Of a stretch of 64,000 nucleotides of DNA, positions 13,819-28,185 are shown one piece after another. Source of the stretch: an uncultured delta proteobacterium. Lineage in GTDB: Bacteria > Desulfobacterota > Desulfobacteria > Desulfobacterales > Desulfosarcinaceae. The notes under the pieces were generated by a model. That model was not told the DNA's origin and made no database searches. It worked only from the letters and a program-made list of their open reading frames with translations. Location of the stretch: positions 42,847 through 106,846 of the forward strand of contig CAVONY010000029.1 in the NCBI GenBank assembly GCA_963697405.1, in the 5' to 3' direction. The stretch's first letter is position 1; every line of letters begins with the position of its first letter. The translations under genes were made by a program, and so were the position numbers.

Positions 13819-13894
13819 TGGAGCCACCGCGCGGAGTCGAACCGCGGACCTACGCATTACGAGTGCGTTGCTCTACCAACTGAGCTACGGTGGC
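13819..13894 (-). tRNA. tRNA-Thr (anticodon CGU)
   Basis: Minus strand reads GCCACCGTAGCTCAGTTGGTAGAGCAACGCACTCGTAATGCGTAGGTCCGCGGTTCGACTCCGCGCGGTGGCTCCA. It has a cloverleaf, a GTTCGA T-loop, an encoded CCA and the anticodon loop CT-CGT-AA. Confidence 0.93.
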
Positions 13895-19302: not shown

Positions 19303-19360
19303 GATTGGAATCGAACGCATAAGATTTCAGGATCCTTGGATATAGCGGTTCTCCTATAGG

Positions 19361-19454
19361 CTTTAAGATAATTAATTTGGCAAGACTAGAGGGAGGAAGC
19401 CGTACGGTGATACTGCGACGACCGATAACGCAGTCCAAATTAATTATCTTAAGG
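19361..19454. ncRNA. Candidate structured RNA/repeat, copy 1: 54-nt conserved core closed by an 18-20 bp stem
   Basis: 19363-19380 is the perfect reverse complement of 19435-19452. Core 19381-19434 recurs at 27372-27425 (46/54 identical by hand). Strand unresolved. Confidence 0.5.
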
Positions 19455-19461
19455 CCGAAAT

Positions 19462-20184
19462 ATGGAATCGGAAACGAGTCAGGACACATTTGGCGGCTAT
19501 CTGAAAAACTTCCGGTTGAAACAGGGCCTGGCGATTCAAACGGTTGCCGAAAATACAAAAATCGCCGTCCACTGCCTCAAGGCCATTGAGGAGAATGCCC
19601 ATGAGGGGCTCCCCCCACCGGCCTATGTCAAGAGCTTCATTCGGACCTACGCCGATGCAGTAGGGGCCAATGCGGACGTCGCCGTCGAGTTCTACCTGTC
19701 GGATCTGAAACAGCAGGAACACACCAAGCAGCATCACCTGAGACGTCGAGAAAAACTGTCGGCCTTCCGTCGGGCGATGATGGCAGTGGGTCTAATCGTC
19801 GGCATTTTGTTTCTTCTGCGGTACACCGATTTTTTTATGGCTCCGACACCGCCGCAAAACACAGCGGCGCCGGAAGGCACGGTCTTGTCCGAACCGGTTG
19901 CCTCCGGAGCTGAGACAGTCGGGAACCGCCCCTCCGCTGCAGAGACGCAGGACAAGCTCAAACTCCAGATTATCGCCGTGGAGCGAACCTGGTTGAAGGT
20001 GATTGTGGACGGACAGAATGCCCGGTCGTATGATTTGAAACCCGAGGATCGTCTGGAGTTAGAAGGAACCGACAACTTCAATCTGATGATTGGCAACGCC
20101 ACTGGACTGCAAATTTTTCTGGATGAGCGACCGGTTAAGATCTTCGGAAGCAGCGGTCAGGTGGTAAGCCTGAAGATACCATAA
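19462..20184 (+). CDS. RodZ-like cytoskeleton protein (HTH plus DUF4115-like C-terminus)
   Basis: N-terminal HTH FGGYLKNFRLKQGLAIQTVAENTKI...LPPPAYVKSFIRTYA, one TM segment, and a C-terminal domain with KLKLQIIAVERTWLKVIVDG. Confidence 0.75.
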   Translation: MESETSQDTFGGYLKNFRLKQGLAIQTVAENTKIAVHCLKAIEENAHEGLPPPAYVKSFIRTYADAVGANADVAVEFYLSDLKQQEHTKQHHLRRREKLSAFRRAMMAVGLIVGILFLLRYTDFFMAPTPPQNTAAPEGTVLSEPVASGAETVGNRPSAAETQDKLKLQIIAVERTWLKVIVDGQNARSYDLKPEDRLELEGTDNFNLMIGNATGLQIFLDERPVKIFGSSGQVVSLKIP

Positions 20185-27215: not shown

Positions 27216-27355
27216 TCCGCTGAACCGCCAACTGCACCGGTCGGTTGGCGTGACTCGCACCGCCGCCGTACGATACATTACATTTCACAACCTCCAGAAC
27301 GAAAGCATATCTGCGGACCATTTCATTCTATATCCGAGGTGGACGTCCATGGTTC

Positions 27356-27441
27356 GAGATCATGCTTATGGCAAGGCCAGAGGGAGGAAGCTGTATAGGC
27401 ATACCGCGACGACCGATAACGCAGTCCACAAACATGATCTC
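27356..27441. ncRNA. Candidate structured RNA/repeat, copy 2: the same 54-nt core closed by a 16-bp stem of unrelated sequence
   Basis: GAGATCATGCTTATGG (27356-27371) against CCACAAACATGATCTC (27426-27441). Core at 27372-27425. Confidence 0.5.
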
Positions 27442-27453
27442 AAATTATAGACT

Positions 27454-28185
27454 ATGCCTGACCGCCGCGCTATCGTTAACCCCGTGAAAGGGAAGAAGCC
27501 GCCCGACACCGGCCCCTTGGCCATTATGGCGGCCACGGAGAGCGATCTGCGTCTGTTGGCGCGCCTGGCGGACACCCCGGTGGTGGCACAGCGCAAGCTT
27601 TACATGAGCAGCCTTCAGGTACATGCGGACGACCAGCGGCGATTCACCGTGGCCGGGCCGATGGTCGGGGCTCCCTATGCTGCCATGATCGTCGAAGCAT
27701 TGGGGGTCTGGGGGGTTGAATCGATCCTCTTTGTCGGCTGGTGTGGCGCCGTATCCCAACAGGTAAAAGCCGGCGACATCATCCTGCCGGACAGCGCCAT
27801 GGTCGACGAAGGCACGTCCGGCCATTACTGCGACCCATCATGCCGGGTGACCCTACCCGCTCGGCCACTGGTGCACCAGGTCCGGTTGGCCCTGCAAAAC
27901 GAGGGGGCCAGGTTCCACGAGGGCGCAGTCTGGACCACCGATGCCATCTTCCGCGAAACGGTTGAGAAGGTAAAACACTACCAGGCCAAAGGTGCCCTGG
28001 CCGTCGAAATGGAGTTGTCCGCCATTTTCACGGTGGCCGGATTTCGCGAAATGCAGGCCGCCGGTATCCTGGTGGTTTCCGATGAACTCTCTGATTATCA
28101 GTGGCGTCCGGGTTTCAACACCCCGGCATTTAAAATCGCCCGTGAGAATGCCTGCCGAGCGGCGTTAACAATTGCAGCCGGATAG
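27454..28185 (+). CDS. Nucleoside phosphorylase, PNP/UDP family 1
   Basis: LAVEMELSAIFTVA motif and a length of 243 aa are typical of DeoD/Udp-type phosphorylases. Substrate not assignable. Confidence 0.7.
   Translation: MPDRRAIVNPVKGKKPPDTGPLAIMAATESDLRLLARLADTPVVAQRKLYMSSLQVHADDQRRFTVAGPMVGAPYAAMIVEALGVWGVESILFVGWCGAVSQQVKAGDIILPDSAMVDEGTSGHYCDPSCRVTLPARPLVHQVRLALQNEGARFHEGAVWTTDAIFRETVEKVKHYQAKGALAVEMELSAIFTVAGFREMQAAGILVVSDELSDYQWRPGFNTPAFKIARENACRAALTIAAG

Follow-up and report, generated by a model that had tools for sequence, protein, structure and literature searches.

A probable family of Correia- and RUP-like MITEs in Desulfosarcina and its relatives, first seen as a hairpin at the start of rodZ

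The stretch of DNA analyzed here (64,000 nucleotides from an uncultured delta proteobacterium, referred to below as the window) carries a rodZ gene whose surroundings follow a gene order shared with relatives: mfd - surA-like - surA - rodZ - mgtE - recO. At the start of rodZ lies a long hairpin, and the 18-bp stem reported in the initial annotation is exact, with 19435-19452 being the perfect reverse complement of 19363-19380 (TTAAGATAATTAATTTGG). The helix actually reaches 22 bp (19359-19380 / 19435-19456), with ends GGCTTTAAG.../...CTTAAGGCC and a single G-U, and the hairpin is much more stable than shuffled sequences on the plus strand (z -6.3) and on the other strand (z -6.1). The 54-nt core enclosed by the stem (19381-19434) was said to occur a second time, and it does, at 27372-27425, with 46 of 54 positions identical and with AGAGGGAGGAAGC and the final 20 nt as the blocks that are invariant between the two cores. 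A degenerate 46-nt core pattern matches exactly two sites in the 64-kb window, where shuffled sequences would be expected to give none. The hairpin is a real, non-random feature that was correctly seen but misread. The features of the two copies are as follows, with column numbers taken from a family alignment (A1) of 127 copies:

19355..19356, plus strand: left TA of the duplicated target of copy 1, placed by comparison of empty and filled sites.
19357..19380, plus strand: left terminal inverted repeat of copy 1, the 5' arm of helix P1, TAGGCTTTAAGATAATTAATTTGG (alignment A1 columns 8-31).
19381..19434, plus strand: interior of copy 1, 54 nt, made up of the loop side AAGRCYAGA, helix P2 and then GAUAACGCAGU (from per-column conservation, RNAalifold and the minimum free energy, or MFE, fold).
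19435..19460, plus strand: right terminal inverted repeat of copy 1, the 3' arm of helix P1, CCAAATTAATTATCTTAAGGCCGAAA (from the family alignment).
19461..19462, plus strand: right TA of the duplicated target of copy 1; the rodZ ATG begins with A19462.
19462..20184, plus strand: rodZ, with PF13413 and PF13464; the RodZ name comes from several sources.
27348..27371, plus strand: left arm of copy 2, CATGGTTCGAGATCATGCTTATGG; its terminus and the left TA are degenerate.
27372..27425, plus strand: interior of copy 2, 54 nt, identical to the family consensus except in the P2 loop.
27426..27447, plus strand: right arm of copy 2, CCACAAACATGATCTCAAATTA; orthologous copies occur in loci L105 and L212/L213/L217.
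27448..27449, plus strand: right TA of copy 2, four bases 5' of the ATG at 27454.

Copy 1 thus occupies 19357-19460, between the TA at 19355-56 and the TA at 19461-62, and the stem segment 19363-19380 becomes the inner part of its left terminal inverted repeat. The last bases of its right arm are degenerate relative to the consensus ...AAAGCCTA. Two of the original descriptions do not survive these boundaries. First, the elements had been placed 7 and 12 nt before the ATGs of their genes, whereas the right TA of copy 1 overlaps the ATG and that of copy 2 lies 4 bases upstream. Second, the closing stems had been called completely different in sequence, whereas the arms of the two copies match in register at 10 of 18 and 12 of 18 positions. 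A repeat search of the window recovers copies 1 and 2 as a single 87-nt repeat at 78% identity, and the stems are therefore homologous.

Both features of the window belong to a much larger family. The prediction that further copies or homologs would exist in Desulfobacterales was borne out by a scan of a species-representative genome collection, in which a pattern of two core blocks found at least 117 loci. Among the matches listed, all come from Desulfosarcina, Desulfobacteraceae, Desulfosarcinaceae, Desulfobacterales or “Deltaproteobacteria” metagenome-assembled genomes (MAGs); the Desulfosarcina species represented are D. cetonica, D. widdelii, and D. variabilis, two source MAGs carry the SEEP-SRB2 label, and at least 25 loci lie in one MAG and at least 18 in another. 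An nhmmer profile built from the listed loci detected 169 copies in 876 kb, including 135 of full length; once later loci had been added, bringing the fetched DNA to 1.5 Mb, the number rose to 228. No copies of the element were found in the viral contigs and plasmids searched, and a literature search returned no paper on a Desulfosarcina MITE or repeat family. The family seems to be undescribed, while the kind of element is itself ordinary. Were only the 64-kb window considered, its mere two copies would suit a recent local duplication inside one genome with no wider family behind it, but the hundreds of copies in many genomes, and the fact that copies 1 and 2 belong to different arm subfamilies inserted at different times, dispose of that explanation altogether.

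Near-identical subfamilies occur inside single genomes, and head-to-tail arrays are found in the family, both of which are typical of recent bursts. The arrays consist of 2-3 units with a 99-nt period (L046:2739-3051, L033:23-217, and L001:1426-1615; fetched loci are designated L), and their units have a right arm lacking its last ~12 nt. One further copy, at L055:5168-5906, is split in its left arm by ~630 nt that include a masked run of N, and it may represent a nested insertion.

The limits of the element were defined by adding 25 nt of flank to the copies. Conservation starts sharply at TATAG and drops to background just past CTATA. The termini TAG and CTA are 90-95% conserved in the 127 copies and the adjoining TA dinucleotides 80-85%, with an intact TA at both sides of 76 of the 127. 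The base outside the TA shows a weak [C/A]TA[G/T] preference that resembles the palindrome CTAG. Between the TAs, the element is 104-105 bp long and without coding capacity; its loop ranges from 4 to 7 nt across copies, and hence there is no conserved reading frame. A mini-ORF following GGGAGG was considered as a candidate and rejected, as the same variation in loop length destroys its frame. The arms read TAGGCTTTAAGATAAT-nnnn-TTTGG plus the complement, giving a terminal inverted repeat of ~25 bp, and the outer 16-18 nt of both (TAGGCTTTAAGATAAT / ATTATCTTAAAGCCTA) are conserved in sequence at 70-95% per column in the 127 copies.

An independent second scan of metagenome contigs was anchored on the arms alone (TTTAAGATAAT-N60-90-ATTATCTTAAA). 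Matches flanked by TATAG/CTATA always contained the same interior, in either orientation, and in the 46 copies retrieved through their arms this interior was 80-99% conserved per column. Arms and interior therefore constitute one coherent element. Three unrelated long palindromes from other metagenomes (L129:4825-4914, L209:1490-1572, and L136:2289-2399, the last being a near-perfect palindrome of 110 nt) also possess the ends TTTAAGATAAT...ATTATCTTAAA, which they may share by chance or by distant relation.

The initial annotation held that the reverse pattern is to be expected of a MITE defined by terminal inverted repeats. With the outer arms conserved, the element bounded by TA on both sides and a filled/empty pair of sites at rodZ (described below), the anatomy is in fact that of a MITE: a non-coding sequence of less than 300 bp, with conserved terminal inverted repeats, a TA duplication, and dispersed, polymorphic copies. 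Both features in the window are accordingly read as copies of one non-autonomous bacterial MITE of ~105 bp that targets TA and duplicates it, a reading to which a probability of roughly 85% is assigned. The family membership, the boundaries, the TA/TA flanks, the one filled/empty pair, the intergenic dispersal, and the covariation of the hairpin are all directly observed.

The filled/empty pair is found at rodZ itself. In one lineage of relatives, represented by six assemblies that are 96% identical to the window in nucleotide sequence over 8.7 kb, the spacer between surA and rodZ is 54 nt long and reads ...GTTCTTCTC-TA-TGGAATCGG, with a single TA (L120/L121/L212-L217). The filled site, ...GTTCTCC-TA-[TAGGCTTTAAG...CTTAAGGCCGAnA]-TA-TGGAATCGG, is present in the window, in L118/L119 (97%), and in L122/L123 (90%). 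Aligned at the junction, ...CTC-TA-TGG... of the empty allele corresponds to TA-[element]-TA-TGG of the window, and filled and empty sites differ by precisely the element and one TA. The site of copy 1 is thereby polymorphic, with three lineages filled and one empty. The empty allele resides in a lineage nearer to the window (96%) than is the filled L122 (90%), and this distribution implies either a precise loss of copy 1 or a replacement of the allele through recombination. A second candidate for an empty site, L180 compared with L161, is too diverged to be clean. It weighs against the MITE reading that there is one clean empty site only and that it needs a precise loss or an allele replacement, which is not typical of excision by cut-and-paste.

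If the MITE reading holds, copy 1 would have inserted at a TA overlapping the rodZ ATG, and its right arm would have taken the place of the native leader. Within a surA-rodZ transcript, should the two genes be co-transcribed, the insertion would place a hairpin of ~24 bp that ends at the rodZ start codon. In the window, the right arm has changed from TTAAAG to TTAAGG at 19453-19454, leaving AAGG 8-9 nt before the rodZ ATG. This single variant accounts for both the “weak AAGG” and the lone G-U, seemingly in favor of the plus strand, that had been remarked upon originally. The AAGG could serve as a makeshift ribosome-binding site for rodZ; the variant need not be adaptive, since it also occurs in copies elsewhere (L098 and L081). 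Copy 1 is evidently dispensable at rodZ, given that close relatives do without the element there. As for copy 2 (about 27348-27447), orthologs are present in all lineages examined and its termini are degenerate, which marks it as the older insertion.

The proposal that the closing helix keeps its complementarity through compensatory change held up well at the level of the family. In P1, 25 of the 26 pairs are doubly changed, and 94.9% of cells are paired versus 37-42% (about 39%) with the partners slid; none of 500 shuffles reached the observed values, and RNAalifold also supports the helix. Inner arm variants that coexist in one genome include GTTTTT/AAAAAC, TAATTT/AAATTA, TCATTT/AAATGA, GATTTT/AAAATC, and ATTTCAC/GTGAAAT, and the left arm of copy 2 is itself a variant with compensated changes, from A-T to G-C at column 16:104 and from A-T to C-G at 21:99.

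A second helix, P2, occupies the interior, where RNAalifold and the MFE fold give the same Watson-Crick pairs. It can be written GG[GA]G[GA]A-GC.GUA-loop-UAC.GC-[GA]C[GA]CC and contains two G·A tandems, each flanked by G-C, that were read in by hand beyond the RNAalifold and MFE pairs. Pair 51:69 covaries (CG 67, GC 18, GU 24). In one subfamily the register of P2 is shifted but the helix is kept, and in two divergent copies (L114:1487-1610 and L042:899-1022) the G·A pairs are replaced by Watson-Crick pairs, both as a real fold predicts. The core is nonetheless no more stable than its shuffles when taken alone (54 nt; z +0.10 and +0.59), whereas the whole element has a z of -8.55 on either strand; its stability thus comes entirely from the arms.

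Family-wide invariance of the interior does not extend to orthologous loci. When the copy 1 ortholog in L122/L123 is compared with the window, there are 7 substitutions, of which 6 fall in the 54-nt interior and none in the arms, and 3 of the 6 hit the supposedly invariant block GACGACCGATAACGC. The copy 2 ortholog in L212 has likewise changed GGGAGG to GGAAGG and has two changes in the P2 hairpin. Since the interior decays in orthologs, its invariance is a property of the copies that propagate and not a constraint imposed by the host at each locus. Presumably, the interior stays invariant because propagation of the element depends on it, or because it rides along with that propagation, and not because it is needed at each host locus.

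These data bear heavily on the idea that the feature is a structured, cis-acting RNA, which would work like a riboswitch or supply a Shine-Dalgarno sequence to downstream genes that lack a ribosome-binding site of their own. The window alone would encourage such a view, in that both of its copies are in the sense orientation, end at or near a start codon, and carry a strong GGGAGG, with P1 and P2 both kept by compensatory change. Furthermore, the statement that the core matches no Rfam family was upheld by a check of the whole window at gathering score and of both copies at E<=10; in Rfam 15, the latter search gave only spurious miRNA hairpin models that respond to the long stem. The sole Rfam match in the window at the gathering threshold is a tRNA gene at 13822-13894 on the minus strand. 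Against this, the gene contexts of the family, which were obtained with a simple and crude home-made codon-likelihood caller that reproduces the obvious genes of the window, fail to show a constant orientation and position ahead of any coherent group of genes. With orientation read from the GGGAGG strand, 28 copies are sense and 50 antisense to their genes, while another 28 lie between convergent (16) or divergent (12) genes. The neighboring genes are unrelated, and only 10 of the 135 full-length copies overlap an ORF by >30 nt. Neither a sigma-70-like promoter nor an intrinsic terminator was found in either window copy. The GGGAGG is ~65 nt from the 3' end and so beyond Shine-Dalgarno range, the rodZ locus of a close relative works without the element, and the core is neither self-structured nor under purifying selection at orthologous loci, having decayed in L122. 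The suggested Shine-Dalgarno or cis-regulatory role is not supported by these data. Mixed orientation, unrelated neighbors, and the lack of a promoter or terminator exclude a leader-RNA or Shine-Dalgarno function as the family's raison d'être, and the cis-acting explanation as a whole is now exceedingly improbable.

The folds themselves also weigh against the MITE reading. Compensatory change in P1 among subfamilies that coexist in one genome, together with the covariation in P2, hints at a folded single strand; neither would be needed by a protein that binds duplex ends. It could be supposed that the element is a REPIN-like hairpin moved as single-stranded DNA by an HUH enzyme (Y1, of the RAYT or IS200 type) and that the apparent TA duplication is a coincidence. 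The TTAC of IS608 provides a precedent for such a coincidence of target plus end. In keeping with this, the whole element is one fold-back hairpin whose internal helix covaries too, and its loss in one lineage was apparently precise. Mismatches read on the GGGAGG strand also lean toward G·U over A·C (144 versus 40 cells, or 77 versus 28 when lineage consensus states are counted), but a single lineage (TAGTGTTTAAG.../...CTTGAATGCTA) contributes 41 of the 77 G·U states through three columns, and the truly private mismatches number 13 versus 11. The use of this G·U excess to assign a folding strand was abandoned, as the excess disappears when the one lineage that has three G·U pairs is left out of the count. 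The G·U ratio is equal in sense and antisense gene contexts, and transitions are symmetric overall (80 versus 82), with no mutational asymmetry. The strand evidence, described as conflicting from the start, stays so after this family-wide count, and individual loci show no trace of selection on an RNA.

A possible enzyme for single-stranded mobilization was encountered in an IS200-like Y1_Tnp gene at L057:164-1171, which has an arm-like fragment 29 nt upstream. Homologs of this gene are flanked by inverted repeats of their own GGGACGTCC type; nhmmer at E<=10 detected no copy of the element alongside any of nine Y1 loci, and the Y1 homologs in L043 and L110 are also without it. The RAYT/Y1 link suggested by L057 was rejected, given that the nine homologous loci carry their own repeats and never the element. 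In these bacteria the Y1_Tnp family is very abundant, with proteins of ~335 aa that are named “RayT” by JGI and with flanking repeats that contain GGGACGTCC (GGGGACGTCCATTGGA... / ...TCCAATGGACGTCCC), as seen at L218-L226 (e.g., L218:1440-1500 and 2506-2535) and at L043:6900-7190. The Y1_Tnp/“RayT” genes are a separate REP/RAYT-like system, unrelated to the MITE. Present family and REPIN/RAYT systems do share a hairpin of ~100 nt built of two inverted arms and a within-genome population, but the RAYT gene flanked by the repeats, which was sought at the nine Y1 loci, was not found. Moreover, the palindromic TA/TA and the CTAG-like preference fit IS630 better, and transfer by an HUH enzyme is judged to be quite unlikely.

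The TA target, its duplication, and arms of ~24 bp instead point to an enzyme of the IS630/Tc1-mariner type as the putative mobilizer of the MITE, since insertion at TA with a 2-bp TA duplication is what characterizes this group. About even odds are given to the proposal that a cut-and-paste DDE transposase of this type, specific for TA, binds both arms and mobilizes the element in trans. No autonomous IS with these ends, and no IS630-type transposase, was detected within the 1.5 Mb of fetched loci. A hunt for a partner in the same loci through orphan termini, long inverted repeats, half-element matches, and multi-copy proteins was equally negative: the orphan termini proved to belong either to truncated copies or to different small elements that share these ends (e.g., L088:810-890, with a different small hairpin), no pair of half-elements encloses a gene, and the proteins found repeatedly in the loci are regulators and transporters. 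Short elements with the terminus TATAGG(C/T)TTT(A/C)AGA and a different interior occur not only at L088:810-890 but also at L002:370-487 and L089:2758-2875; one such element, 78 nt long, forms a CCCGCTTTCAGCGGG hairpin and retains only ACGCAG of the usual core.

Several known systems resemble the present family to different degrees. The Correia (NEMIS) elements of Neisseria share with it a length of about 107 bp (in their short form), terminal repeats of ~24 bp, TA at the termini, a TA duplication, and an intergenic location, although they belong to a different phylum, the likeness drawn here is one of description, and no invariant GGGAGG...GACGACCGATAAC interior has been reported for them. 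Correia ends also read TATAG, and both an IHF site and RNase III processing are known for these elements. They are 107 or 155 bp in length, with a 24-bp terminal inverted repeat and insertion at TA, and occur as hundreds of intergenic copies whose transcripts fold into a long hairpin (PMC2229807). RUP is another element of 107 bp that inserts at TA and is linked to IS630-Spn1 (PMC2229807). It too is non-coding, with an IS630-family mover presumed to act in trans, but a partner IS whose ends match is known for it, whereas none was found for the present family in the fetched loci, and its arms have ~9 contiguous pairs versus ~25 here. For ISY100 of the IS630 family, which targets and duplicates TA, the 24-bp terminal inverted repeat is the only requirement in cis (PMC2170065). 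IS630/ISY100 elements have the same TA target and duplication and the same CTAG-like preference as the present family, but they are autonomous, ~1 kb in length, and encode a transposase, whereas the present element encodes nothing. Finally, ERIC (IRU) sequences of enterobacteria are palindromic and intergenic, ~127 bp long, with a hairpin kept by compensatory changes (PMC2229807). In these respects they are like the present family, from which they differ by their short 7-bp terminal repeats and low mobility.

An additional peculiarity of the family concerns the ends of neighboring genes. Among 72 antisense genes running into the right end of the element, 43 have a stop codon <=10 nt from that end, as compared with 9 of 46 for genes that approach the left end (odds ratio 6.1, p=2e-5). 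At 19 independent loci the terminal TAG of the element itself serves as the stop codon, in the frame xTA|TAG, and the gene is always antisense to GGGAGG; examples of right ends located at gene ends are L065:7222-7344, L075:3459-3581, and L026:1720-1841. When the empty sites were reconstructed, 11 of the 19 had their natural stop 0-4 codons downstream. Selection at the protein level would account for the frame of the TAG stops but does not explain the orientation, and because the termini are symmetric, a symmetric transposase cannot easily cause the bias toward the right end, which is a further point against the MITE reading.

It could be suggested that the MITE has additionally been co-opted by its hosts and acts in mRNA in an orientation-dependent manner, for instance by providing a 3' hairpin or a site of processing just after stop codons. 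The right-end bias and the symmetry of the termini would both be in line with such a role, as would the precedent of ERIC in Yersinia, where a 3' hairpin or processing site follows stop codons and the effect on mRNA depends on orientation (PMC2229807). On the other hand, the gene calls come from the crude caller described above, the bias holds for two genome groups out of three and is absent from CSMAG_456, it could reflect counter-selection against one orientation, and the G·U statistics are alike in sense and antisense contexts. Co-option by the host is, on present evidence, unlikely.

Slightly less doubtful, but still improbable, is the notion that the interior of the MITE constitutes a functional single-stranded module, in which P2, with its two G·A/A·G tandems, sits beside a conserved 9x9 internal loop. 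Such a module might be required in cis for mobilization by way of a folded single strand. It might also be the host that uses the interior instead, in an orientation-dependent fashion at the 3' ends of genes, and this usage would explain why the element so frequently supplies a stop codon to antisense genes.

Taken at the strength given above, the hairpin at rodZ belongs to an apparently undescribed family of Correia/RUP-type MITEs and should not be taken for a private structured RNA or for a regulatory leader. In genomes of Desulfosarcinaceae and SEEP-SRB, such hairpins should be masked as mobile repeats and not be annotated as small RNAs, riboswitches, or terminators. Assemblies of MAGs are broken by copies of the family, many of which are situated at contig ends. 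The MITE has also rewritten gene boundaries, replacing the start region and leader of rodZ in the case of copy 1 and contributing its terminal TAG as the host's stop codon at no fewer than 19 other loci. What retains interest beyond this is the G·A-tandem interior, the covariation that preserves the hairpin, and the orientation bias at stop codons; the bias and the invariant interior are leads on what a MITE may need beyond its terminal repeats. Finally, as the family is common to Desulfosarcina- and SEEP-SRB2-labeled MAGs, it may serve as a marker of strain history, and perhaps of gene flow, among the sulfate reducers of sediments.
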